DNA of 61,293 bases from Candidatus Falkowbacteria bacterium CG10_big_fil_rev_8_21_14_0_10_39_11 (lineage in GTDB: Bacteria > Patescibacteriota > Patescibacteriia > UBA11705), in NCBI GenBank assembly GCA_002773615.1, contig PFAP01000031.1, forward strand, positions 1 through 61,293. The letters are read 5' to 3'. A program made the position numbers and the translations under genes. Below the pieces are notes generated by a model, which made no database searches, had not been told where the DNA came from, and saw only the letters and a program-made list of their open reading frames with translations. Below are positions 4,971 to 54,630 of the stretch, one piece after another. The first letter of the stretch is position 1; each line of letters begins with the position of its first letter.

Positions 4971-5564
4971 ATGTCTCATACACGCCGTGCTGGATTGCCG
5001 CAAGTTGATCGCGACACATTTATTGAATTGCTTGAAACGATGAAGGCAAGCGCCCTCTCAGTCATCAATCGAGTTCGGAGTTTGTTTCATATCAAGGAAT
5101 CATCTTCAAGAGATTTTAGTACACCATTTGTTGCCAGTTCCAGGATTGACGCATCGGTCTTGCTTGCATTGGAAGCAGTTTTTACTAGCGGTTCAATTGA
5201 AAATGTCATGCTTCATGCATATGATCAGGTCATCGCATTTGAATCCACAGTTGGGCATGTTCCCAAGCAGGATATTCGGGTTGACTTTGAGGAAATTATT
5301 TATACTGATATCTATCTGCAAATGTGTTTTGCAAGTGGAGTTGGTCGTCCGTATCCATATTATGGAGATGTTTATTCTTTGTTTGAAGCTTTGCTGTATG
5401 TTGTGGATGTTTTCAAACTTGATGCTCTTCTTGACGAACATGAACCGGTCAAGAAAAAGGGTCTTCAGGAAAATGCCTGGCATCAGTTGAAGAAAAAGAT
5501 TGATCAAAATACAGAGTATCTGGCGTCTTTGCTAGGAAATTGCTTGATTGATGATGCGGCGTAA
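4971..5564 (+). CDS. Hypothetical protein (ORFan, 197 aa from the SD-preceded ATG)
   Basis: The track ORF 4908..5564 begins inside the promoter. The internal ATG at 4971 is preceded by aaggagga. Confidence 0.6.
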   Translation: MSHTRRAGLPQVDRDTFIELLETMKASALSVINRVRSLFHIKESSSRDFSTPFVASSRIDASVLLALEAVFTSGSIENVMLHAYDQVIAFESTVGHVPKQDIRVDFEEIIYTDIYLQMCFASGVGRPYPYYGDVYSLFEALLYVVDVFKLDALLDEHEPVKKKGLQENAWHQLKKKIDQNTEYLASLLGNCLIDDAA

Positions 5565-5632
5565 TTCTAGACAGATCAAAATCATCAAATCATCGGAGCC
5601 TTAGCATGGCTTTTCTACCGAGATGTGTGTTG

Positions 5633-5661
5633 TTGACGAGTGAGCAATATATTTATAATAT
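5633..5661 (+). promoter_or_regulatory. Sigma70-type promoter TTGACG-17-TAATAT
   Basis: Read directly, upstream of the SD site taggagga and the ATG at 5722. Confidence 0.55.
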
Positions 5662-5721
5662 GTTATTATAAATTGATTCGACATCGCTCTCAAAAAGATA
5701 ACCCCAATTTTAGGAGGATTG

Positions 5722-6045
5722 ATGCAAATAGCGGAAAGTAGAGAGGTTTTGGTTCAGCTTCGATCTGACGTCAGCAACTGGATTGCTACCAGCGAGCGTT
5801 GTGACCTGTCACCTTTTTACTCTCGAAAAATTTCTCAGATCAGTCACAAAGCACTTCCTTCTTTACAGGATTGTGTTGGTGATTATGATCAGTTTTGTCT
5901 CAATTATTCTTTGTTCATTGATGAAGTTCGAAACGCTTTGATGTTTTGGCGACACTGCGGAGATGCTGTCCTTTTGGCTTTTTGCAATTTGATTTTAATC
6001 AAGGTTCGACAAAGCGAACACAAAATTGATTGTCTCATAGTATAA
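5722..6045 (+). CDS. Hypothetical small protein (107 aa)
   Basis: Track ORF. Strong SD site (taggagga). A terminator hairpin overlaps the stop codon. Confidence 0.6.
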   Translation: MQIAESREVLVQLRSDVSNWIATSERCDLSPFYSRKISQISHKALPSLQDCVGDYDQFCLNYSLFIDEVRNALMFWRHCGDAVLLAFCNLILIKVRQSEHKIDCLIV

Positions 6046-6059
6046 CTATGAGCTTTTTT
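6034..6059 (+). terminator. Intrinsic terminator
   Basis: CTCATAG-tataa-CTATGAG followed by cTTTTTT. Confidence 0.6.
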
Positions 6060-6082
6060 ATCCCGATATTAATGGTAGACAA

Positions 6083-6111
6083 TTGACCGATTGATTACGA
6101 CACGTTATGAT
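6083..6111 (+). promoter_or_regulatory. Sigma70-type promoter TTGACC-17-TATGAT
   Basis: Read directly, upstream of the SD site agagagga and the ATG at 6147. Confidence 0.5.
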
Positions 6112-6146
6112 TTATTAGTACGAACAAAAAATAGAGAGGAAAACCC

Positions 6147-6479
6147 ATGGCTGGCATTGCTCTCAAGTTAAAGATCACACCCAGAATGAAATTTATTTGG
6201 GATTGTGATTCCCTAGATAGCTACATCAAAAAGTTGACTAGCTATGTTGAACATCATGTTCAATTCCCTGATGAAGTTATTGTTCTCCTGCAATGGGTGC
6301 GGACTACCAAGTTCTTTTCCGTCAATGGGACCGTTCAATTTCAATTCAAAGATCATGATTGTCGTTGTATGCGGCTTGAGTTGATTCGAACCTTGATTGA
6401 AACTCTGCGACGCAAGGGTGATATTGTTCTTGAGGAGTTCGCTTATCAGGAGGCCCAAAAACTGAGATTACTATTTTAA
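6147..6479 (+). CDS. Hypothetical small protein (110 aa)
   Basis: Track ORF with an SD site and its own promoter and terminator. Confidence 0.6.
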   Translation: MAGIALKLKITPRMKFIWDCDSLDSYIKKLTSYVEHHVQFPDEVIVLLQWVRTTKFFSVNGTVQFQFKDHDCRCMRLELIRTLIETLRRKGDIVLEEFAYQEAQKLRLLF

Positions 6480-6558: not shown

Positions 6559-8151
6559 ATGCGCAAAATTTTTACTTTGGCGGTCATTTTTCTGATTACA
6601 GTCGCATCCATGCCGGTTGCTCCAGCCCAGGCCATTTCCAGTGCGGCTCTCAATGCAACCGTTCAGGTTTTATGTCCGGATGATGCGGGCAATTGGTTTA
6701 GCGGTTCAGGTACCATGATCCACTCAAGCGGTATTGTGATGACCAATCGTCATGTTGTTCTCGACACTAATAGTAATGTTATTCCGTTTTGTTATGTTGG
6801 TTTGACTACCAGTCTGACAGAGGAACCATCATTTGATTATGTCGCTGAGGTCAAATATTGGTCAACGGATGAAGATATTGATGTGGCTTTTCTTTATATT
6901 GATAATAAATTGAATGAAAATTTTTCTGCCATTGACGTTTTTGCTTATGATACCAGCGGCTTACAATTGGGTGAAACCCTGGAAATTGTTGGTTATCCGA
7001 GCGTCGGTAGTAGTACCGTTACTTATGTTTCCGGTGTAATGAGTGGTTATTTTGGTGATTATATCAAATCAACCGCTCCGATTGAACAGGGGAATTCTGG
7101 TGGCGGAGCCTATAATGTCAGTGGTCAATTTATCGGTTTGCCAACGTTTGTTGTCGCTGGAAATTATAATACCATCAGTTATATTCTCAATATCAACAGT
7201 GTAAAAAATTGGTTGGTCAGTCAGTTCGGTAGTAGCTATCAGACACCGTTATATTCTGCTACCGCCGATCCATCAGCCGAGAGTAGTATTATTTCTCAAA
7301 CAGCAGATCAGTCTGCACCAGATGCTAATGATGTTTGGGGTTGGGTTTATACGGATTCGACGATGACCGAAGAAATAGAATATGAAGTGTATCAAAGCGA
7401 TTCTACACCATTTATGACGTGGGATGGTTTTTATGATGAAAGTGGCATTGAAGGTTATTATGTTTACTTTGGTCAAGATATAAATGCCAATCCGGCCACC
7501 GAAGGAATTTATTACAAAACCGATTCATATTCACCGCTTGTAAACAATGGCGATGGTATTTATTATTTGATTGTCAAAGCCAAAGATAATAATGGTAATG
7601 TGTCATCAGGGGTTTATTGGATGTATTATTATCAAGCCGATAGCGTAGTCACGCCGGATCCGGAGCCACAAGATTCTCCAGAGGTAATTGTACCAAATAG
7701 TACTCCTCCGGCTAGTACCCCAGATAGCAGCTATGATCCATATGAACTGAACCAACCAATCGCTACGACTCCAGGCTCATTGGCCGGAAGTTTGAGTGGC
7801 CGTATTTTGTTACAGGTTGAACGAAATGGTGAAGGTTGGTATATTTATCCGGAAAATAACAAACGATATTTCCTTGGTCGTCCAGCTGATGCCTTTAGCA
7901 TTATGCGAGAATTAGGTCTGGGTGCTACTCATTCTTATATTACAAAGTATACCGTTTATCCTCGTCAAGTTTGGGGCAAGATTTTATTAGATGTTGAAAT
8001 GAATGGGGAAGCGTATTATGTTAATCCGGTTGACGGCAAAGCCTATTATTTGGGGCGTCCGGATGATGCTTTTCGTATTATGCGAGAGCTTGGGTTGGGT
8101 ATTTCAAACCAAAATCTAGCCAATATTCCATTCGACATTCTTTCTCTTTAA
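6559..8151 (+). CDS. Secreted trypsin-like (S1 family) serine protease with a C-terminal pair of the ~52-aa GKILLQVE module
   Basis: Signal peptide. Catalytic-triad contexts MTNRHVV, DIDVAFLYI and GNSGGGAY. The C-terminus carries GRILLQVERNGEGWYIYP...LGRPADAFSIMRELGLG and a second copy. Confidence 0.8.
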   Translation: MRKIFTLAVIFLITVASMPVAPAQAISSAALNATVQVLCPDDAGNWFSGSGTMIHSSGIVMTNRHVVLDTNSNVIPFCYVGLTTSLTEEPSFDYVAEVKYWSTDEDIDVAFLYIDNKLNENFSAIDVFAYDTSGLQLGETLEIVGYPSVGSSTVTYVSGVMSGYFGDYIKSTAPIEQGNSGGGAYNVSGQFIGLPTFVVAGNYNTISYILNINSVKNWLVSQFGSSYQTPLYSATADPSAESSIISQTADQSAPDANDVWGWVYTDSTMTEEIEYEVYQSDSTPFMTWDGFYDESGIEGYYVYFGQDINANPATEGIYYKTDSYSPLVNNGDGIYYLIVKAKDNNGNVSSGVYWMYYYQADSVVTPDPEPQDSPEVIVPNSTPPASTPDSSYDPYELNQPIATTPGSLAGSLSGRILLQVERNGEGWYIYPENNKRYFLGRPADAFSIMRELGLGATHSYITKYTVYPRQVWGKILLDVEMNGEAYYVNPVDGKAYYLGRPDDAFRIMRELGLGISNQNLANIPFDILSL

Positions 8152-8172
8152 TTTTTGAATTAAATTATAATT

Positions 8173-8220
8173 GTCACCCTGAGCCCTGCCTGCCGATAGG
8201 CAGGGATCTCGAAGGGTGAC
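8173..8220. repeat. REP-like nested GC-rich hairpin (GTCACCCTGAG family)
   Basis: GTCACCCT-gag-CCCTGCCT-gccgat-AGGCAGGG-atctcga-AGGGTGAC. A near copy lies at 28621 and a partial copy at 27976. Confidence 0.75.
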
Positions 8221-8271
8221 TTTTGTTTTATCTTTAAATTGCTTAAATTAGACAAAATACATCCATTATTA

Positions 8272-8300
8272 TTGACAGAATTATAAAAATATGATATAAT
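8272..8300 (+). promoter_or_regulatory. Perfect consensus sigma70 promoter TTGACA-17-TATAAT
   Basis: Read directly in an AT-rich flank, about 57 nt upstream of the ATG at 8358. SD site ggaggagg at 8345-8352. Confidence 0.65.
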
Positions 8301-8357
8301 ACCAGTATTGTTAATTGACAACCATGATCACGGCCTAAACGGCCAGGAGGAGGTTCC

Positions 8358-9434
8358 ATGTCCAGTTCGATGAAGCTGTATCGTCTCGCGTCCTACGCTT
8401 TCCTGCTGGCGGTGTTCACCGCCGGCGGCGGACAGCGCTGCACGCCGGTCCCGACCGGACCACCGGTGGAGGACTGCCAGACCGACAGTGAATGCAGTGA
8501 GTTCAACCGCGTCTGCGGTCCGCAGGGGAACTGTATCCCCAGCGGCTGCAGTGACGACGACGGTTGCGCTGATCACGAGACGTGCTACCATGGCACCTGC
8601 TACCCGCAGGATGCGGCCTGGTGCGATACCGCCGACGATTGCTCGGACTACAATCCGTGTACCGTCGACGAGTGTACCCAGGACGGCAAGTGCATCTACA
8701 ATCGTCAGGAGCTGACCGGCGCCGTTTGCGGCTATGACTCGTTCTACGAAGATACGCGTGTGTGCTGGCTCGGTCAGTGTGTCCTGCCTCACGGCTTCTG
8801 CAACCCGTTGGCCGATCAGTCGGCCATCGAGGAGCAGTGCCAGGTTACCGGCGGCGACTCCGACTGGGGTTCGATCTGTATCCCGGACGGCCAGCAGAAG
8901 GGCGGTCGCGCTCTCGGCTGGTGCAATCAGTGCCTGCCGCAGACCGATCCCGAGACCGGCCTGGACATCGGTTGTCCGGCCGAAGCCCCGACTTGCCTGA
9001 CCGAAGAAGTTCCGTTCGTCAACAGCGAATGGACCCGCACGTGGTATTACTGTGGTCAGTCGAGTTGTGAGAGTGATACCGACTGCGCCGAGGGTCGTCG
9101 CTGCGAAGATGGCGCCTGCGTCGAGTACGAGCCCAGAACTTCCAACATCGCTTGCGGGCCGAATATGTATTGCCAGCCCTGCGACCTCGACAGCGAGTGC
9201 CAGGGCTTCGGATACTGCACCGGTCCCTACAACGATGACCCGAGCTGTACCAGCTACGGTATCTGCGATACCTGGGAAGCCCAGACCGTAATCCTCCCGA
9301 CCGGCCGTTGCAACCACAACATCGGCACCTGCATCATGGAGGTGTCACTGGTAGCCGATACCTGCAACGATGGCGACGCTACCACCTGGGACCACTGCGT
9401 TCCGGGAGACGGTTGCGCCAACGATCCCACCTAG
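8358..9434 (+). CDS. GC-rich, cysteine-rich (~41 Cys) secreted protein with C-x-D-x-N-x-C-T-x-D-x-C-type repeats
   Basis: Strong SD site and signal peptide (LASYAFLLAVFTAGG). Repeats include CSDYNPCTVDECTQDGKC, DTDCAEGRRCEDGAC and CNDGDATTWDHCVPGDGC. Composition is far above the flanks. Confidence 0.75.
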   Translation: MSSSMKLYRLASYAFLLAVFTAGGGQRCTPVPTGPPVEDCQTDSECSEFNRVCGPQGNCIPSGCSDDDGCADHETCYHGTCYPQDAAWCDTADDCSDYNPCTVDECTQDGKCIYNRQELTGAVCGYDSFYEDTRVCWLGQCVLPHGFCNPLADQSAIEEQCQVTGGDSDWGSICIPDGQQKGGRALGWCNQCLPQTDPETGLDIGCPAEAPTCLTEEVPFVNSEWTRTWYYCGQSSCESDTDCAEGRRCEDGACVEYEPRTSNIACGPNMYCQPCDLDSECQGFGYCTGPYNDDPSCTSYGICDTWEAQTVILPTGRCNHNIGTCIMEVSLVADTCNDGDATTWDHCVPGDGCANDPT

Positions 9435-9522
9435 GCGCAAACCTGCGCCAATCAATTCCCCAAAAGTTCATCGTAACTTTTCTTGACCGACCTATCAAAG
9501 TAGGCGGTTTTTGTTTTGCGTG

Positions 9523-9588
9523 GGAGGTGTTTCACACCTCATTCCGGCACCGCCTGGCGGTGCCGGAATGGTGGGCTACGCCCACCCC
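9523..9588. repeat. Cluster of three consecutive GC-rich hairpins (REP/BIME-like)
   Basis: GGAGGTGttcaCACCTC; ATTCCGGCACCGCCtgGCGGTGCCGGAAT; GGTGGGCtacGCCCACC. Confidence 0.7.
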
Positions 9589-9606
9589 ATGCAAACAAAA
9601 AACTCA

Positions 9607-10200
9607 TCATGTTTTTGATGAGTCGATCAATTTTCTTCTAAGATAAAGAGTCAAAGGCTTAGTTTTAGACGGCGGTAATTTATTGGCCAAATGATAAATC
9701 TCTTCAAGTTTACCAATAATTGTTTTCTTTGTTTTTACGTTGAAAGGCTGTATTTGTTCAAAGGATTCGTTAAGTTGATTTAGCCAAATCGCAGCTTTAA
9801 AATCATCAACTTTCCACCGACCATTGTGATCATTATGATTAAATTTTAATTTTGCTTGGCCCAGGAAATATCTAGTTTTTTCCAAAGCATAATCAAACCA
9901 TTTATTGTCGGTGGCTGGGAATTTGTTTTTTTCCAAGAGATTGATCAATACTTGAATTTTTTCGGTCGTAACATTTCTGGGCCAGAATCTGGACAAAGAC
10001 ACAAAGGCATTAAGTTTTCTCAAAACTTCAGCATGATCAAGAAAATTGATATTTCTGATGCTTTGGATCAACTGCAAGACCCAGTTGTACGCTTGGACAT
10101 CTTGGCTTAGAAAGGGCAGTTGGTTTGAGTCTTTCTTACAATCACGCATTTTTTTTAGGTGTTCAATCAGTCTGTCAAGCGAATATTCATACCACTTCAT
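9607..10200 (-). CDS. Hypothetical protein
   Basis: Track ORF with no recognisable motif. A hairpin terminator lies at about 9597-9625. Confidence 0.55.
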   Translation of the reverse strand: MKWYEYSLDRLIEHLKKMRDCKKDSNQLPFLSQDVQAYNWVLQLIQSIRNINFLDHAEVLRKLNAFVSLSRFWPRNVTTEKIQVLINLLEKNKFPATDNKWFDYALEKTRYFLGQAKLKFNHNDHNGRWKVDDFKAAIWLNQLNESFEQIQPFNVKTKKTIIGKLEEIYHLANKLPPSKTKPLTLYLRRKLIDSSKT

Positions 10201-28620: not shown

Positions 28621-28669
28621 GTCACCCTGAGCTTGTCTGCCGGTAGGCAGGGCTCTCGAAGGGTGGGGG
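28621..28669. repeat. REP-like nested hairpin (GTCACCCTGAG family)
   Basis: GTCACCCTGAGCTTGTCTGCCGGTAGGCAGGGCTCTCGAAGGGTG is a near copy of 8173-8220. Confidence 0.75.
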
Positions 28670-31196: not shown

Positions 31197-31270
31197 TGGC
31201 TCGGAGGCAGGGACTCGAACCCCGATACCTTGGACCAGAACCAAGAGTCCTACCATTAGACGACCTCCGA
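31197..31270 (-). tRNA. tRNA-Gln (anticodon CUG), CCA encoded
   Basis: Hand-folded 74-nt cloverleaf. Acceptor TCGGAGG/CCTCCGA, anticodon arm CTTGG-TTCTGGT-CCAAG, T-arm CGGGG-TTCGAGT-CCCTG. Confidence 0.9.
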
Positions 31271-34153: not shown

Positions 34154-37100
34154 ATGTCTCAAGAAAAAATTTCTTCGTCACGATCAGAAGTCAAAAGACA
34201 ATGCCCGGAAATTATTCCAGCCAAAGAAATCAATGTCGAACCCGGCACACTAATTTTATTAGTCGGTCCACCAGCCTCCGGCAAAAGTACTTTTGCGGCC
34301 GAGCATTTTCCGGTGGAATGTGTTGTTTCTAGTGATTATCTGCGCTCTGAGCTGACCAACAATCCGGGCAATCATATTTTATCTGACTTGGCCTTTGCTC
34401 GCGCCGGTCAACTGGTAGCTTCCAGAATGAAGCAGGGTCGAGTGACTGTGGTTGACGCCATGAATCTCAGACCCAATGCCCGCAAAGCATTTATCAAGTT
34501 TGCTGCAAAAAATAACCGACCGGTCATTGGGGTTCATTTTGATTTTGATCCAGCTGTATTACAGGCCAGAGATTTAGCTCGAGGCGGTAAAGTGGGTGAA
34601 AAAGCGATTGGACGCCGAGCCGGCAAAACCGCTGATATTATCATGCTTCAAAATGATAAAAATCTTGATGAATTGTATGTTGTCGATCAGCCTGACCAAG
34701 AGGTGACTGTTAATCTACCGAAGGCAGAACAAGCGTTATTTGAAACAGAAAAGGATTTTTATTTTGTCGCCACTAAAGCTGAAACTGATTTTTTTGAATA
34801 TGGCCGCCGGTATAAAGAACGCTTGAAAGATGAATCTTTACCAAGATTGGAAGTCCAGTCTGACTCAGTCAATTTTATTACCGACAGCCCGGAAGCAAGA
34901 ACGTTTTTACAAAACAATACCATTCCGACTCAAGTTATTGATTTGGAATTTTTAGTCAAACGTTTTGCTGTCCCCATTGATGATCCTTTGGTCATCAAGA
35001 CAGCTGAACGATTTTTACGTCATCGCTATGAATTAAATTTAGTAACCTTTGTATTGGTTTCAGATAAGACGTCTGAGATAGCTGCTCAGTTAAAAGAAAT
35101 CGCCGGAACTAATTTTGAGCATACCCAGTCAGTTGACATGGACTCTGAGCAGCTAAAAAAAGCGGTTATATCCATCGACAGAGGTGAATTAAAAGATGAG
35201 CCACTATTGATTCTCGGTGACATTCATGGCAGTCTCCAAGCGATGCAAAAAATGCGTCAGGAAGTGATTTTAGAAAAAAAAGATTTCCCAGATTTAGTTG
35301 AACGCAAAATGGTTCTTGTAGGTGATGTTCCGGATCGCGGGCCCTTCAACGCACAATCATTGCTTTATGCTGCCAATCTGGTCAAGCGGGGCAAAGCTGA
35401 ATGGATTCTTGGCAATCATGATGAAAATGTTCGGATCGGATTGCAGATTGTTTGGGATAAATTCTCCGAATCTGATAAAGATTGGGCTACTTGGATCAAG
35501 GAGGATTTCAAGGAAAGCATGCTGCGGGCAGAAGTTCGTTCCCGGGCCACCAGACAATCTATCAAAGAGTTAATTGAAATAATTGATATCTATGCCAAGG
35601 GTACAATGAAAAAACAAAGTCGTAGGCCTAGAATTAGTAAAAATGCTTTCAAAGAATTACTTGATACGATGAATGCTGCGCCCATTTACAAAGAATGGCG
35701 TCATTTGGTAGCGGTTCATGCTTCACTGCCGCATATCCCCAAGGAAGATGAAGAACTTGATGACAAACAAAAGATGATCATGACTCATGGCAAGAAAATG
35801 TGGTTGGGTCCGTCTCAAGAAAATCTCAAATTACGAACCACTACCGCCACCAATCCGGATATAATTGTTGTCGGCGGTCATACTCATGATCGCGAAGTTA
35901 CCATTGATTATCGTTCTGGCACCGTTGGTCTGGACGTTACCGGACCGACTTTACATGCTTTGAAATACCCGGAAATGGAAGTGATCAAACATGACGAGCC
36001 TCATCTGGTGGAGCTGTTTGAAATGGCCAAAAATCCAGAACTGCCCAGTGGTGAAAAACTCTGGCAGCTGGTAAACTTTTTTGAAGACCAGCTTATGCTC
36101 AAACTCAATTCCGGCAAGCGGAATAGCGAGTATGAAGGCCTGACCATTATTAGCTATCATGAATTAACAGAAGTTAACAGTACTTGGGAAAAATTCCCCG
36201 TGCTCAGAAACTTTCGCGGTTTGATTATTGATCGTAAGGGAAACATCGTTGCTCGTCCGTTCAAAAAAACCCACAAAACCGGTATTGAGATTTCTTTGGA
36301 TCAATTGGATTTTAAACCGGAAAAAGTGTTTGAAAAGGTTAATGGTTCCATGGGAATTTGTTATTTTCATGGAGGGCAGTGGCGAATAGCTACCAAATTT
36401 AGCTTTCACAACCCCGGCTACACCGTGCCGGCCACCGAAATGCTGGAACAGATGAATACTAACGCCCTGGATAAAAACAATACGTATTTATTTGAAATTA
36501 TTTTGCCCGAAGACCCGCATGTTGTTGACTATGAGGGGCGCAAGGAATTGGTCTTGTTAAATTCAAATATCACCGCGACCGGCGCAGATTTACCCTGGCA
36601 AAAGGTGGCCGATACGGCCAAAGCCCTTGGCTGTCGGACCGCATATGATTTGACCGATCAATTTGAAGACCTGACAATTGCTGAGATTTATCAAAAAGCT
36701 CAGACCGAGGGAGAATTGCACAATTTAGAAGGTTTGATGGCTATTTATCATGATCATGATACCGGAGAGCAAGTCACGGTCAAAGTAAAAGCCATAGAAT
36801 ATGACAACAAAAAATTTGTCCGCGATCGCATGAAGTGGGACAAACTGCTTGATCGTTTTGACTGGGAAAAACTTGAAATGTCAGATGATGACAAGGATTT
36901 GTTTATGTCTTACAAACGCGACAGTGAGTTTGTTGTTGCCGCATTGGAGACCAGATTGGAATGGATTAGAGATCAGGTAAAGTCAATCATCGAAAATTTC
37001 ATTGGTCAGTACAAAGATATAATCAAAGCCAGCCAATTGCGATATTTAACGTATATTAGAAATGGTGAATCTCAAGCAGATGCTATCACGAAATCAGTCA

Positions 37101-37300
37101 ATGATGCGTTGGTGATGTACCGATCGGCCGGCGGTAAAATGGATAAAGAAGATAAAGGGGTTCTATTGTCTTTTATCCGGAGTATTCGTGGCGGCCAGAA
37201 TCGCATGATGATCGCATACGCCAAAAAGAAAATTACGACCAGAATTCAAACAGAAACAGCCAAACGCGGCCAGGCGTCATTCTGGTTGCTCCCAGAATAA
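34154..37300 (+). CDS. Pnkp-like RNA repair fusion: P-loop polynucleotide kinase + calcineurin-like phosphatase + ATP-dependent RNA ligase
   Basis: Kinase: GPPASGKST and VVDAMNL. Phosphatase: GDIHG, GDVPDRGP, GNHDEN and GGHTH. Ligase: EKVNGSMG (motif I), YLFEIILPED, LVLLN and VTVKVKAIEYD. Confidence 0.75.
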   Translation: MSQEKISSSRSEVKRQCPEIIPAKEINVEPGTLILLVGPPASGKSTFAAEHFPVECVVSSDYLRSELTNNPGNHILSDLAFARAGQLVASRMKQGRVTVVDAMNLRPNARKAFIKFAAKNNRPVIGVHFDFDPAVLQARDLARGGKVGEKAIGRRAGKTADIIMLQNDKNLDELYVVDQPDQEVTVNLPKAEQALFETEKDFYFVATKAETDFFEYGRRYKERLKDESLPRLEVQSDSVNFITDSPEARTFLQNNTIPTQVIDLEFLVKRFAVPIDDPLVIKTAERFLRHRYELNLVTFVLVSDKTSEIAAQLKEIAGTNFEHTQSVDMDSEQLKKAVISIDRGELKDEPLLILGDIHGSLQAMQKMRQEVILEKKDFPDLVERKMVLVGDVPDRGPFNAQSLLYAANLVKRGKAEWILGNHDENVRIGLQIVWDKFSESDKDWATWIKEDFKESMLRAEVRSRATRQSIKELIEIIDIYAKGTMKKQSRRPRISKNAFKELLDTMNAAPIYKEWRHLVAVHASLPHIPKEDEELDDKQKMIMTHGKKMWLGPSQENLKLRTTTATNPDIIVVGGHTHDREVTIDYRSGTVGLDVTGPTLHALKYPEMEVIKHDEPHLVELFEMAKNPELPSGEKLWQLVNFFEDQLMLKLNSGKRNSEYEGLTIISYHELTEVNSTWEKFPVLRNFRGLIIDRKGNIVARPFKKTHKTGIEISLDQLDFKPEKVFEKVNGSMGICYFHGGQWRIATKFSFHNPGYTVPATEMLEQMNTNALDKNNTYLFEIILPEDPHVVDYEGRKELVLLNSNITATGADLPWQKVADTAKALGCRTAYDLTDQFEDLTIAEIYQKAQTEGELHNLEGLMAIYHDHDTGEQVTVKVKAIEYDNKKFVRDRMKWDKLLDRFDWEKLEMSDDDKDLFMSYKRDSEFVVAALETRLEWIRDQVKSIIENFIGQYKDIIKASQLRYLTYIRNGESQADAITKSVNDALVMYRSAGGKMDKEDKGVLLSFIRSIRGGQNRMMIAYAKKKITTRIQTETAKRGQASFWLLPE

Positions 37301-37453: not shown

Positions 37454-37801
37454 TTAGCTCTGCGCCAGCTCCCAGAACCGACGGATGTTGCGAATAGCGG
37501 CCAGCATACTGGGCTTGCCAACGCAGTTGTCGGAGTGAACCTTCAGAACTCTCGGTGGCGGGAAGTTGACATCGCAGTCCTCACCGCGGGAGAGCAGAAA
37601 GTACTGCTCCTCAAGCCAGTCGGTCACCGCCGTCCCCTTGATCTCGTCGCCCTGGTCATCCCAGAGGGCAATGTCGTGATCCAGGGAGAGCTCATCGACC
37701 GTACCGGTCTTGAGCATCTCGATCACCTCAGCCGGCGTACGGACGAGCAGCCAACCGACTGGCGGCTTACGGACATCGTCCAGAAAGATCTTGATTCCCA
37801 T
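37454..37801 (-). CDS. GC-rich cREC-like (cyclic-phosphate-processing receiver-like) domain protein
   Basis: KIFLDDVRKPPVGWLLVRTPAEVIEMLKTGTVDELSLDHDI ... VLKVHSDNCVGKPSMLAAIRNI fits the family pattern as I remember it. Hand-counted 58-63% G+C. Confidence 0.6.
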   Translation of the reverse strand: MGIKIFLDDVRKPPVGWLLVRTPAEVIEMLKTGTVDELSLDHDIALWDDQGDEIKGTAVTDWLEEQYFLLSRGEDCDVNFPPPRVLKVHSDNCVGKPSMLAAIRNIRRFWELAQS

Positions 37802-51006: not shown

Positions 51007-54000
51007 ATGAATACACTTAAAAAGGTCTTTACCTTTTCTGTAGTGTTGACTACTATTCTTTGGTCAATGGGTGCTGCTGTGTTTGTACCAGTAGCTTCAG
51101 CTGTCACTTTGTCAGCTGGTGATTTGATCAAAGCCAGTGGGGCTGCAGTATATTATTATGCTGCTGACGGAAAACGTTATACTTTTCCAACCCAGTCAAC
51201 TTACATGACTTGGTATGGTGATTTTTCTGGTGTGAAAACCGTTACTGACGATGAACTTGCAGCTATCGAGCTTGCAGGTAATGTCGTTGCCCGCGCTGGT
51301 ACAAGACTTGTAAAAATTACAACTGTACCAAAAGTTTTCGCGGTTGAGCCAAATGGCATGCTCCGCCACATTGCTAGTGAGTCAGCTGCAGCAACTTTGT
51401 TTGGTGCAAACTGGGCATCACGTGTAATTGATGTTCCTGATGGATTTTGGGTTAACTACACAGATTCTGGTCTAGCTCTTGATGGTACTGAGTACCCAGC
51501 CGGTTCACTTGTGAAAATGGCTTCAGGTGCAGATGTTTATTATGTAAACACTGATGGAACTTGGTCAAAATTCGCAAACTCTGGTGCTTTTACTACCAAT
51601 GGTTTTGCTTGGTCTGATATTGTTACTGCTCCAAGCACTATGAGCTTCACAGCTGGTAGTGATATTGCTGCTTACACTGCTTCTCTTGTGGATACTTCAC
51701 AAGGTGGTGGTGCCGGTAGTGCTCCAACTTCAGGTGGAAACGTTATGTTCGGCTTGAGCTCATCAAATCCGGCTGGAACCCAAATTATTTTGGATTCTAC
51801 CTCAACTGATGGTTCAGAAGACATGACTTCAGTATTTAAGTTCTATGTTACTGCTTCAGGTGGTGACGCTGTGGTTGATTCAGTACGTCTACACAGAAAA
51901 GATATTACTTCAAATACTGACTTCGCAACTCTATATCTATATGATGACGCCGGAACTTTGATTTCTGACGCTCCGTCATATTCAAATAACTACTACACAT
52001 TCGGTACCAATTTTACTGTTTCAAGTGGTACTACCAAGACTCTTACATTGAAGTTAGACTTGACTAATGGTACGTCTGCAAACAAGACTCTATCATTCTC
52101 AGTTGATTCTGCTTCTGATGTAGTTCTTGTTGGTGGTGGTAGTGTTTCTGGAAGCTTCCCAGTTTCTAGTAACAAGTTCGAAACTGCACAAGTTAGCGAC
52201 CTAGGTAAGATGACCCTTGCTACTGCTTCAGATCCTGGAACTTCAATCGAAGCCGGATTGACTGATCAAGAGCTATGGAGATTCACTCTAGCCGCTGCTG
52301 ACCAAAAAATGCGTCTTGACAGCTTGAAATTAACTGCTGTTGGTACTCTAGAATCAGATACCTTTGAAAATCTATACCTATATGATGGTATTGATATTCT
52401 AGGTACTGCTACTAGTTTGGATTCAGCTAAGACCGTTACATTTGATGGTCTAAACTATGAGATCACAGCTGGTCAAACAAAAACTATTCAATTCCGTGGA
52501 GATATTGTGAAGGGTACAAACCGTACTTTCTATTTCCAAGTTCAAAATGGTTATGATGTAATGTCTTTTGACACCAACTATAGCCGTTATGTCCGTGTTA
52601 ATGCTTCTGATACTTATACTATCATCGCTGCATCTAACACAACTACTATTAGCACCGGTTCTCTACAAATCTCTAAGGCTATTGATTCTCCAAGTGGCTC
52701 TATCGCTGCTGGAACAACTAACCGTCTTCTAGGTAAGTGGAATTTCCGAGCTATTGGTGAAGATATCAAGGTAAGCAGTCTGATCGTGCGTACTACCGTT
52801 GGTGGTGCTCTAGATACAGATAACGTCGACAATGGTAAGATTCTTGTTAATGGTACACAACTTGGAACCACCAAGGATCTAGACTCTGATGCAACAGCTG
52901 ACGGTGATACCACCGATGATGACGCTGCTGCTGATGATGATACTACCTTTACTTTTGGCAACACCTTTATTATTCCTGCTGGAGCAATCTATGTAGTGGA
53001 GATCTATGGTGATGTCAAAACAGGTGCTAGTGTTGATATGGCTGCTGATGATACTATTCTTCTAACTTTGGAAGCCGGAACAAACAATTTCTTCCGCCAA
53101 AGTACAGGTACAACTGGAAGCAGCACCGCATCAGGTGCTAACGCTTTGACTGTTGCTGACGCTAGTATTACCCCAACATTGAACTCAACAGTTTCTGACA
53201 TGAGTGTCGTACAAGGTGCTCAAGATGTAATTGTTGGTTCATGGGTTCTTACTGCCGGCACAGCTGAAGATGTTGAAGTAAGTAGTATTGCTTTCGTTGA
53301 TGGTGGTGCTCAAGGTATTGGTGGCGGTTTCCAGAATCTATCACTTGTTATTGGTGGTGTAGAACGTGGAACCTCTGCAAACCCAAGCTCAACCAACGGT
53401 ACTTCTACCAGCATCAACTTGAGTCCTAGAATCACCATTTCTGCTGGAATGACTGAAACTATCACTCTATATGCTGATGTAAAGGATACTGCTAACGCTG
53501 GTTGGAACGATACAGATCCAATCGCCGTTGACTCTGTTTCTGGTCTAGGTATTGACACCAGTTCTACTGTGTCATACTCAACAGACGTACCTGGTCAAGC
53601 TATCACAGTTGTAACTGCTGGTACTTTGACTATTGCTGCTGCAGCTGCTCCTACCAACCCAACATCTAGTTATATTGTGGCTGGAAAGACAAATCAAACT
53701 GTAGCTGCTTGGGAATTCTCAGCTAATAATGTTGAGGATCTAATCGTTCACCGTTTACAGCTTACTGAAAACGGTACCGATGACAACCCAGGTAATGTTC
53801 AGAACTTAAAGTTGTATGTTGATGGTGTTCAAGTTGGTTCAACTCTTACAAGTTTGACTGACAGTACTGCTAACACCGGAGTGTTCTATAGTGCTACTGG
53901 ATTGTTCACCGTTCCAAAGAACGATTCTATGTATGTAGAGCTTCGTGCTGACGGTACTGCTACTGCCAATGCAACTTTCTTGGATGATGGTTCAGATCTA

Positions 54001-54630
54001 ACATTCCAAATTAGTAACGTGGCTACCCAAACTGACACAACTGCTGTTTCAGCCAAGGGTGCTACATCACAAACTTATGCTGCTGGTACATCTGCAAATT
54101 ATGCAGGCAACAACCACAAGTTTGTGAAGACAAAACCAACCTTCTCTCTAGAGAGTGGTGTATCTACTGTTTTGTCACCAACTACTACTGAAGTGTTACG
54201 TTTCCGAATTACAGCTGATTCAAACTTCAAACTCCTATTTGATACAACATCAAATATCCGAGTTACCGCTCTTGCCTCAGCTGCTGATGACACTGATAAT
54301 GATGAAACCTGGACTCTATATGAGTACGCTACTAATACGACTCTTGATACAAATACAGGTCTTGATACCAGTGATGGTACTGATACTACTGTTGAATTCA
54401 ACTTTGGTTCAGCCACTTCAACCATCCCTGCTGGTGGTTACAAGGTGTACTATGTTGAAGCCGGTCTTGAGGACTATGAAGATACTGGCGACTCTCTCCG
54501 CTTGAAGATTAACAATGCCGCCGCAGATCTTAGTTTTGATGATGGTTCAGGCAGTGGAACTGCAGACCTTACCAACGCTAGTTTCGCCGGTATTGGATTA
54601 CCTCTAAGTGGTCCAGCTCTAGTGAAATAA
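51007..54630 (+). CDS. Cysteine-free, Thr/Ser/Ala/Gly-rich 1207-aa surface (S-layer-like) protein with repeated beta-sandwich-like modules
   Basis: Signal peptide and no Cys in 1207 aa. The module ending ...Y.EL..D......A......L.F recurs. SD site aaaggaa and a strong terminator. Confidence 0.7.
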   Translation: MNTLKKVFTFSVVLTTILWSMGAAVFVPVASAVTLSAGDLIKASGAAVYYYAADGKRYTFPTQSTYMTWYGDFSGVKTVTDDELAAIELAGNVVARAGTRLVKITTVPKVFAVEPNGMLRHIASESAAATLFGANWASRVIDVPDGFWVNYTDSGLALDGTEYPAGSLVKMASGADVYYVNTDGTWSKFANSGAFTTNGFAWSDIVTAPSTMSFTAGSDIAAYTASLVDTSQGGGAGSAPTSGGNVMFGLSSSNPAGTQIILDSTSTDGSEDMTSVFKFYVTASGGDAVVDSVRLHRKDITSNTDFATLYLYDDAGTLISDAPSYSNNYYTFGTNFTVSSGTTKTLTLKLDLTNGTSANKTLSFSVDSASDVVLVGGGSVSGSFPVSSNKFETAQVSDLGKMTLATASDPGTSIEAGLTDQELWRFTLAAADQKMRLDSLKLTAVGTLESDTFENLYLYDGIDILGTATSLDSAKTVTFDGLNYEITAGQTKTIQFRGDIVKGTNRTFYFQVQNGYDVMSFDTNYSRYVRVNASDTYTIIAASNTTTISTGSLQISKAIDSPSGSIAAGTTNRLLGKWNFRAIGEDIKVSSLIVRTTVGGALDTDNVDNGKILVNGTQLGTTKDLDSDATADGDTTDDDAAADDDTTFTFGNTFIIPAGAIYVVEIYGDVKTGASVDMAADDTILLTLEAGTNNFFRQSTGTTGSSTASGANALTVADASITPTLNSTVSDMSVVQGAQDVIVGSWVLTAGTAEDVEVSSIAFVDGGAQGIGGGFQNLSLVIGGVERGTSANPSSTNGTSTSINLSPRITISAGMTETITLYADVKDTANAGWNDTDPIAVDSVSGLGIDTSSTVSYSTDVPGQAITVVTAGTLTIAAAAAPTNPTSSYIVAGKTNQTVAAWEFSANNVEDLIVHRLQLTENGTDDNPGNVQNLKLYVDGVQVGSTLTSLTDSTANTGVFYSATGLFTVPKNDSMYVELRADGTATANATFLDDGSDLTFQISNVATQTDTTAVSAKGATSQTYAAGTSANYAGNNHKFVKTKPTFSLESGVSTVLSPTTTEVLRFRITADSNFKLLFDTTSNIRVTALASAADDTDNDETWTLYEYATNTTLDTNTGLDTSDGTDTTVEFNFGSATSTIPAGGYKVYYVEAGLEDYEDTGDSLRLKINNAAADLSFDDGSGSGTADLTNASFAGIGLPLSGPALVK

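Follow-up and report, generated by a model that had tools for sequence, protein, structure and literature searches.

The DNA analysed here, positions 1 to 61,293 of contig PFAP01000031.1 (assembly GCA_002773615.1) from Candidatus Falkowbacteria bacterium CG10_big_fil_rev_8_21_14_0_10_39_11 and hereafter called the window, is an ordinary chromosomal segment of a candidate phyla radiation (CPR) bacterium with genes for S2, EF-Ts, PheS, DnaX, TrmB and a Na/H exchanger. At 8358-9434 of the forward strand, next to the gene of a secreted trypsin-like protease (6559-8151, PF13365), it carries an open reading frame (ORF) for a cysteine-rich, probably exported protein of 358 aa, whose composition sets it apart from the rest of the window. 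This gene is shown below to have held its chromosomal position already in the common ancestor of the window organism and its relative UBA11705.

The ORF has a G+C (GC) content of 0.622, with 0.56, 0.54 and 0.77 at the first, second and third codon positions (GC1, GC2 and GC3), against a GC3 of 0.26-0.48 in the other 46 ORFs of the window with 120 aa or more. In 100-nt intervals GC is 0.56-0.70 from about 8350 to 9450, compared with 0.26-0.36 at 8100-8350 and 0.31-0.38 beyond 9600, and a two-change-point segmentation delimits the GC-rich block at 8329-9592 (0.614 inside versus 0.37 outside). These values bear out a preliminary description of the locus, which had called the gene a foreign-looking GC island beginning about 30 nt before the ATG and ending past a downstream hairpin cluster. 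The codon usage of the gene is the reverse of that of the host (TGC 0.78 versus 0.26, CAG 1.00 versus 0.38, ATC 1.00 versus 0.25 and CTG 0.60 versus 0.10), A-ending codons are almost missing, and four-fold sites contain 0.05 A, 0.5 C, 0.27 G and 0.17 T. The gene thus displays the atypical base composition and codon usage that count as a trait of genomic islands. There is no GC skew at the locus, and the coding strand has equal proportions of A (0.189) and T (0.188), which rules out adenine mutagenesis by a diversity-generating retroelement; neither a reverse transcriptase nor a template repeat was found among the neighbourhood ORFs. Avoidance of ribonuclease-toxin motifs (e.g. ACA) was likewise rejected, as the usual TAG was the only k-mer with shared depletion. 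An antisense ORF of 329 aa (8328-9317) was dismissed as the open antisense frame usual in GC-rich DNA, since the GC3 periodicity and the indels between orthologs fit the plus frame, in which the relatives align with conserved Cys columns.

All expression signals of the gene lie on the forward strand. The sigma-70-type promoter, TTGACA (8272-8277) and TATAAT (8295-8300) separated by 17 nt, matches at 12 of 12 positions and has an extended -10 element (TG at -15/-14); the transcript would be predicted to begin at about 8307. Perfect matches of this kind number only three in the whole 61 kb, and each of the two GC-rich genes of the window has one upstream, the second of these genes being the cREC_REC gene described below. 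The 5' leader contains the box ATTGACAACCAT (8314-8325), a possible operator just 3' of the -10 element, and at 8332-8353 a short GC hairpin (GGCC-TAAAC-GGCC) followed by the Shine-Dalgarno (SD) sequence AGGAGGAGG, which occupies 8345-8353, 4 nt upstream of the ATG (ribosome-binding site GGAGGAGG). Taken by itself, the leader does not fold with significant stability (z -0.68). Downstream, folding revealed a small hairpin in the 3' untranslated region (GGCGCA-AACC-TGCGCC, with GCGCCAA; 9434-9449) and an intrinsic terminator composed of GACCGACCTA-tcaaag-TAGGCGG and TTTTTGTTTT (9485-9518). The description of these signals as host-type and maximal was correct.

Relatives and age of the gene

A word-indexed search of 5.8 billion proteins returned only the query and P0002, and a family profile gave the same two. 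P0002 is a 426-aa "hypothetical protein, Candidatus Falkowbacteria" with 47% identity to the window protein by BLASTP and 57% by global alignment. Searching 1.84 billion representatives with phmmer produced five matches, namely the query, P0003 (a fragment), P0004, P0005 and a probably spurious FAS1 protein. The GTDB genomes contained a single locus, in UBA11705, and the JGI metagenomes one more (L008). No family members were found in IMG/VR, the INPHARED phages or the PLSDB plasmids, a second search of 5.8 billion proteins with the L008 protein as query added nothing, and no homologs from high-GC phyla appeared in the protein, phage and plasmid searches. There are thus about five relatives in total, all in AT-rich contexts, and two loci (window and UBA11705) are attributed to Falkowbacteria. 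So far, the family is an orphan seen only in AT-rich genomic contexts, in Falkowbacteria where these were identified. Our literature search found no paper on this family or on GC-rich islands in Falkowbacteria.

P0002 is the positional ortholog of the window protein. Its gene is flanked by the same trypsin-like protease gene on one side and by the genes for the 197-aa and 162-aa proteins, TrmB, the Na/H exchanger, S2 and EF-Ts on the other, with a 262-aa paralog (L003:5533-6321) and an RtcB gene inserted between protease and ortholog. The five GC-rich members (the window gene, the ortholog and paralog on the UBA11705 contig L003, L008 and L009) share a GC3 of 0.76-0.84 and a near-identical composition of four-fold sites, and their flanks have 27-47% GC. 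Gene GC and GC3 are 0.62 and 0.76 in the L003 ortholog and 0.65 and 0.84 in the L003 paralog (flanks about 0.45 for both), 0.62 and 0.79 in L008 (flanks 0.32-0.43), and 0.63 and 0.77 in L009 (upstream flank 0.27). A third UBA11705 paralog (P0005/P0008; DF272_01640, DF272_06270) has a host-like GC3 of 0.41. The strand of the L003 paralog is disputed by gene callers (290 aa at 5464-6336 on the reverse strand versus 256-262 aa at 5533-6321 on the forward strand), and a cluster look-up gave no NCBI accession for it; GC-rich ORFs in AT-rich metagenome-assembled genomes (MAGs) are prone to mis-annotation. The RtcB RNA ligase gene (L003:6513-7829) lies between the two cysteine-rich paralogs.

The AT-rich promoter and leader as well as the terminator are conserved among family members. 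A near-consensus promoter is common to all GC-rich members, with 12 of 12 matching positions in the L003 paralog and L009 and 11 of 12 in the L003 ortholog. The ATTGACAACCAT box is identical in the window and L009 (124-135), where it sits in an upstream stretch with a mean column identity of 77%, the two proteins being about 40% identical. Counterparts of the hairpin before the SD sequence are GCGC-TAAG-GCGC in L003 and GGCC-TTAGTT-GGCC in L009. The terminator sequence ACCGACCTA..TAGGCGGTTTTT is common to the window, the L003 ortholog and the L003 paralog, and the genes of the window, the L003 paralog and L008 all have GCGCCAA after their stop codons. The 5' leader of L009 also contains a 41-codon mini-ORF (161-286) with a signal-peptide-like sequence of its own (MKSLIVVLIASLLLTGLTA...), which has no counterpart in the window. 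Comparison of GC segments with ORF edges in six genes gave offsets of -73 to +29 nt at the 5' side and -18 to +158 nt at the 3' side. Thus, the GC segments track the ORFs, which favours a coding- or mRNA-linked cause over foreign DNA blocks.

The age of the gene was assessed from the pair of orthologs in their syntenic setting. The flanking orthologous proteins of the window and UBA11705 are 66-81% identical, except for the 197-aa hypothetical protein (38%), and their genes have GC3 values of 0.32-0.40 (window genome) versus 0.45-0.54 (UBA11705), the host backgrounds being about 0.35 and 0.50, so that synonymous composition has moved substantially since the two lineages split. The GC3 of the cysteine-rich pair is 0.769 in the window and 0.756 in UBA11705, and neither copy has moved toward the value of its own host. 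The synonymous sites of this pair are saturated to the same degree as those of the flanking genes: where both proteins have the same residue, matching codons exceed the frequency expected by chance from the codon usage of each gene by 0.10, compared with -0.04 to 0.16 in the flanks, and in the best-conserved segment (aa 276-335, 78% identity) the same codon is used at 14 of 45 identical residues. Together with synteny, this saturation makes the cysteine-rich pair as old as the divergence of the two genomes, which places the gene at this position in their common ancestor. According to our own two-state relaxation estimate, which assumes one or more synonymous substitutions per site in each lineage, a gene evolving neutrally from a GC3 of 0.85 would be expected to have reached about 0.45 in the window lineage, whereas 0.77 is seen.

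Possible forces on base composition and competing explanations

The explanation we favour, with a probability of roughly 0.55, is that the locus is a vertically inherited, lineage-specific cassette for an exported cysteine-rich protein, the GC-rich codon regime of which is held by a gene-specific force. Consensus promoter, short leader hairpin, strong ribosome-binding site, ORF and intrinsic terminator would make up a self-contained single-gene unit, and the GC island would represent a gene-specific compositional equilibrium bounded by the ORF, not the scar of a recent import. The requirements of the protein are not the cause of the GC-rich codons, since the AT-type paralog (GC3 0.41) encodes the same kind of protein. 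GC-biased gene conversion (gBGC) and selection at the mRNA level would be the candidate forces.

The vls locus of Borrelia is a GC-rich surface-antigen locus in an AT-rich genome. As in such recombination-linked GC enrichment, the present family combines a raised GC3 in surface or secreted proteins with nearby paralogs and a conversion footprint. Unlike it, the cysteine-rich locus has neither a silent-cassette array nor a GC skew, and six UBA11705 assemblies show no within-population variation. Gene conversion does occur within the family, to judge from the adjacent UBA11705 paralogs, which have identical codons at 27 of 30 positions in the first 65 codons compared with 53 of 98 in the rest. 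GC-biased gene conversion has been documented in bacteria (Lassalle et al. 2015, PMC4450053), but the GC3 excess of the cysteine-rich gene (+0.25 to +0.4) is far above the reported genome-wide effects (PMC4450053). The case for gBGC in the window gene is weakened by this large required effect and by the presence of a single copy in the window.

With regard to the mRNA, local 120-nt folding compared with dinucleotide-preserving synonymous shuffles gave z values of -4.4, -0.8, -3.1, -4.0 and -4.9 for five family members, and of +1.2 to -0.9 for five host genes, with one more host gene at -3.1. The excess structure of the window gene lies within its first 240 nt. Local folding is thus more stable than expected in four of the five members, which is no more than suggestive of mRNA-level selection. 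In the 5' region and in the stretch coding for the signal peptide, the folds differ among members and are not significant relative to dinucleotide shuffles, and Rfam gave no match there.

Several observations weigh against the favoured explanation. The conversion footprint is confined to a single paralog pair and its 5' 200 nt, and the window contains just one copy of the gene. The excess mRNA structure is not positionally conserved between members, and it is missing from one of them but present in one host gene. Unrelated GC-rich genes (the cREC_REC gene of the window and a gene for a 181-aa protein in L010) share the pattern, for which a common GC-rich import source is equally possible, and an unsampled GC-rich reservoir is possible as well. 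As to function, the window protein matches no Pfam family at E ≤ 0.1, PF00526 included, searches with PDB profiles, PHROG and NCBIfam gave no above-threshold match, and the poor AlphaFold2 (AF2) model (pLDDT 48) provides no structural support.

The strongest competing explanation, which we consider unlikely but by no means negligible, is that the family diversifies in an unsampled GC-rich pool, from which AT-rich genomes were entered repeatedly, or anciently with very slow amelioration. As such a pool, a GC-rich mobile element, an unknown host organism or, among other CPR lineages, the Peribacteria with 58% GC would be conceivable. It would account for the sharing of one GC-rich codon regime by several unrelated ORFs (GC3 of 0.77 in the cREC_REC gene and 0.885 in the L010 gene), and the coexistence of AT-type and GC-type paralogs in UBA11705 would fit old and newer arrivals. 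Phages of GC-rich hosts encode relatives of cREC_REC with up to 37% identity, and Peribacteria of the Rifle aquifer have 58.5% GC and are rich in secreted cysteine-rich proteins (PMC4736985). However, no member of such a pool appeared in 15 billion public proteins, in IMG/VR or in the phage or plasmid sets, the ortholog pair is syntenic with homologous AT-rich regulatory flanks, and it is unlikely that one site received independent insertions bounded precisely by the ORF. Plain slow amelioration is also unlikely given the age of the pair, its unchanged GC3 and the relaxation estimate (about 0.45 expected under neutrality versus 0.77 observed in the window lineage).

Host translational selection, in which very high expression would have driven the codons to a host-optimal set ending in C or G, appears improbable to us. 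It is in line with the maximal promoter and SD sequence, with the strong preference for NNC in two-fold boxes (0.70) and with the exclusive use of CAG, ATC and CGT/CGC; the genes of S2 and EF-Ts also shift mildly to NNC (0.32-0.39 versus 0.16 in the protease gene). Yet these same benchmark genes use T at 0.44-0.46 of their four-fold sites and have a GC3 of 0.34-0.37, and in the cysteine-rich gene GC1 and GC2 are shifted too. Translational selection would likewise not predict an equal GC3 in two hosts of differing codon usage, or a frequency of 0.05 for A-ending codons, which are read by universal UNN tRNAs.

Islands of atypical GC acquired by horizontal transfer reportedly ameliorate over time, as in the concept of Lawrence and Ochman. 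The preliminary description had proposed such a recent acquisition, from a high-GC donor of the Myxococcota or Planctomycetota type, with a strong host promoter supplied later. The cysteine-rich locus resembles a classical acquired island in being a GC and codon-usage outlier in a homogeneous genome (GC3 0.77 versus 0.26-0.48 elsewhere in the window), and its Lys-poor composition with more Arg than Lys, the CTDC-type repeats and a sub-threshold match of L008 to the myxobacterial family TIGR04201 (E 0.028) point in the same direction. Unlike such islands, it consists of a single ORF with ORF-precise GC borders in place of a foreign block, lacks mobility genes and has a syntenic ortholog. No integrase, transposase, tRNA or direct repeat was found at its borders among the neighbour ORFs examined (the only tRNA of the window lies at 31197-31270), and mobility signatures are therefore missing. 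No donor homolog was identified in 1.84 billion representatives, nor any homolog in high-GC, phage or plasmid sequences, and the promoter, leader and terminator are conserved across the family. Synonymous sites are saturated, and GC3 is equal in two genomes that share only 75-81% identity in their housekeeping proteins, so that neither absence from relatives nor a low synonymous divergence from a donor applies. The age of the pair, its unchanged GC3 and the relaxation estimate led us to reject recent acquisition, which we regard as very improbable.

An assembly artefact, in which reads of a GC-rich organism were chimerically joined into a CPR contig, would explain the abrupt change of composition at both ends but can practically be discarded, because an independent ENA assembly (L006) differs from the window at four of 17,077 positions and at none of the junctions, the exact window protein (P0001) is present on three contigs, the UBA11705 relative is identical over 5.5 kb with both GC islands in six assemblies from different samples and assemblers, and host-type promoter, SD sequence and terminators abut the ORF. 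Within this comparison of assemblies, the chimerism that the preliminary description had wished to see checked is excluded.

Predicted protein, other GC-rich genes and neighbouring elements

The window protein is acidic and contains exactly 41 Cys (11.4%), three Lys and 11 Arg. Both the cysteine count and the repeats CSDYNPCTVDECTQDGKC and CNDGDATTWDHCVPGDGC had been given correctly in the preliminary description, as had the signal peptide. The leader begins with the N-region MSSSMKLYR, continues with the hydrophobic core LASYAFLLAVFTA and ends in GGGQRC, and thus has the layout of Sec export signals (charged N-region, core of 10-15 residues, polar c-region) as read from the sequence. It is conserved across all relatives, and the motif TAGGGQ[QR]C-x-P-x-P (leader and motif encoded at 8358-8441, forward strand) is found in all five GC-rich members. 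A lipobox ([LVI][ASTVI][GAS]C) is not present, the first Cys being preceded by G-Q-R (G-Q-Q or G-G-Q in relatives). The AF2 model, based on a five-sequence alignment, is helical at residues 4-20 (overall pLDDT 48, pTM 0.29).

The invariant positions of the family alignment are mainly Cys columns, and these conserved columns fit disulfides or metal sites equally well. Three C-x2-D-x-[DE]-C-x5-C-x3-G-x-C knots are present in the window protein (aa 40-59, 63-80 and 237-254), as well as two CTDC-like repeats seen by eye 240 residues apart, CSDYNPCTVDECTQDGKC at aa 95-112 (8640-8693) and a second, related one, CNDGDATTWDHCVPGDGC, at aa 335-352 (9360-9413), both on the forward strand. The stretch homologous to window aa 95-115 matches PF00526 (Dicty_CTDC) in P0002 (30.1 bits) and P0003 (30.9 bits), above the gathering threshold of 27. 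The tandem 24-residue arrays of PF00526 are absent, with one scoring stretch per protein. TIGR04201 (Myxo_Cys_RPT) did not match the window protein, P0002, P0003, P0004 or P0005, and its match in L008 (14.6 bits) is below the cut-off of 25.

The product is probably an exported, disulfide-rich surface or matrix protein. By analogy, after export it would form small disulfide- or metal-stabilised modules (CTDC-like repeats and knots) and might function extracellularly at the surface or in a matrix, taking part in attachment to other cells or interacting with the adjacent trypsin-like protease. A surface or extracellular role fits the domain gain and loss between the orthologs and their divergence, which is faster than that of the housekeeping neighbours. 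Attachment or matrix formation would be the most likely role by analogy with two groups of proteins. The CTDC proteins of Dictyostelium (PF00526), which include slime-mould extracellular-matrix proteins, have a C-x-D-x-N-x-C-T-x-D-x-C repeat, as found above threshold in P0002 and P0003 but not in the window protein, and are also secreted, cysteine-rich and modular. They contain long arrays, whereas the window family has one or two repeats and a CPR host, and its leader motif, central DAPMDMGE/DWG region and C-terminal domain are without a Pfam counterpart. The groundwater CPR bacterium Candidatus Peribacter riflensis encodes secreted cysteine-rich proteins with a signal peptide and 7-11% Cys, for which attachment has been proposed and which weakly resemble the cysteine-rich repeats of Myxococcus (Anantharaman et al. 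2016, PMC4736985). Those proteins have a mean length of 1,655 aa and come from a genome of uniformly 58.5% GC without compositional contrast (PMC4736985), and neither phmmer nor profile searches detected homology to the window family. The earlier remark that such a protein is unusual for this kind of organism was thus overstated, as CPR bacteria are already known to have secreted cysteine-rich proteins (PMC4736985). The myxococcal TIGR04201 family shares the knot-like Cys spacing that occurs three times in the window protein.

A role as inhibitor or partner of the neighbouring trypsin-like enzyme would be a weaker alternative to attachment or matrix formation. It was considered in view of the gene order in both genomes and of a report, based on structure alone, of pacifastin-like domains with six Cys in Myxobacteria and in MAGs of CPR bacteria (PMC13388995, 2026). 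These domains are also small disulfide-rich modules, and a possible protease-inhibitor function would fit the adjacent protease gene; the searched text of that paper's supplementary files does not name Falkowbacteria. The protein class is a variant of the known exported cysteine-rich proteins of CPR and myxobacterial type, and the interest of the locus lies in what maintains its composition. At the same time, this orphan, strongly promoted and exported family adds to the few candidate surface or host-interaction factors of uncultivated Patescibacteria.

Two unrelated genes show a similar composition. The cREC_REC gene of the window (37454-37801, reverse strand) encodes 115 aa (PF20274, E 2e-20) and forms an ORF-delimited GC island with a GC of 0.59 and a GC3 of 0.77, in which 17 of 17 Lys, Glu and Gln codons end in G. 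Its promoter (37908-37880, reverse strand) is the only other intergenic 12/12 TTGACA-17-TATAAT site of the window, and its junctions recur in five other assemblies. In UBA11705, L010 1617-2162 (reverse strand) encodes a 181-aa protein of unknown family and is likewise an ORF-delimited GC island (GC3 0.885), with an 11/12 promoter and the ribosome-binding site AAGGAGGAGGAG. Together with the cysteine-rich secreted family, each with a near-perfect promoter and a strong SD sequence, these genes tentatively suggest that AT-rich CPR genomes might hold a class of single-ORF, ORF-delimited genes with GC-rich codons, whose GC3 of about 0.77-0.89 would be actively maintained through long periods of evolution, independently of the host mutational equilibrium, although we find this generalization doubtful at present. 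If it were true, the gene-specific force at the nucleotide level could be strong GC-biased conversion, selection for stable GC-rich mRNA, or a codon-based regime of translation by which these mRNAs can still be decoded under certain tRNA conditions. If genome-wide, such genes would provide a natural test bed for the forces that hold single bacterial genes off the GC equilibrium. Atypical GC is routinely taken as evidence of recent transfer, but this shortcut fails for an old, syntenic and ORF-bounded island with a composition that host mutational bias should have erased, and caution is needed in composition-based calls of horizontal gene transfer and in binning of CPR genomes.

The cassette had also been described as bracketed by hairpins resembling repetitive extragenic palindromic (REP) elements. 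Both hairpins exist and fold stably, but they are unrelated and not copies of each other, and thus define no mobile unit. The upstream one is part of a compound GC-rich hairpin with TTTTGTTTT (8173-8229, forward strand), which serves as terminator of the protease gene (stop at 8151) and neighbours the cassette without being part of it. Its 8173-8220 portion (-34.3 kcal/mol, z -7.0) is one of two copies of a GC-rich palindrome of about 46 nt (GTCACCCTGAGC...CTGCCGnTAGGCAGGGnTCTCGAAGGGTG), the other being located at 28621-28668; the former copy is followed by a T-run, the latter is not. This palindrome is missing at the orthologous site in L003. The downstream element (9519-9592, forward strand) is a closed GC-rich three-hairpin junction of 74 nt (-52.3 kcal/mol, z -6.8) standing between two convergent terminators, that of the cysteine-rich gene and that of the 197-aa gene (9607-10200, reverse strand), which was recognized by folding at 9601-9624 (reverse strand). 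It has no Rfam family above chance and only self-matches within the window, and it is missing downstream of the L003 ortholog and hence not a conserved part of the cassette.

Elsewhere in the window, a gene convergent with that of cREC_REC (34154-37300, forward strand) encodes a protein of 1048 aa that has a P-loop kinase (AAA_33) at its N-terminus and a metallophosphatase domain in its centre, a layout like that of the RNA-repair protein Pnkp. A further ORF of 1207 aa (51007-54630, forward strand) has an unusually high GC2 of 0.50, a GC3 of 0.28 and no Pfam match, and possibly encodes another large surface protein.

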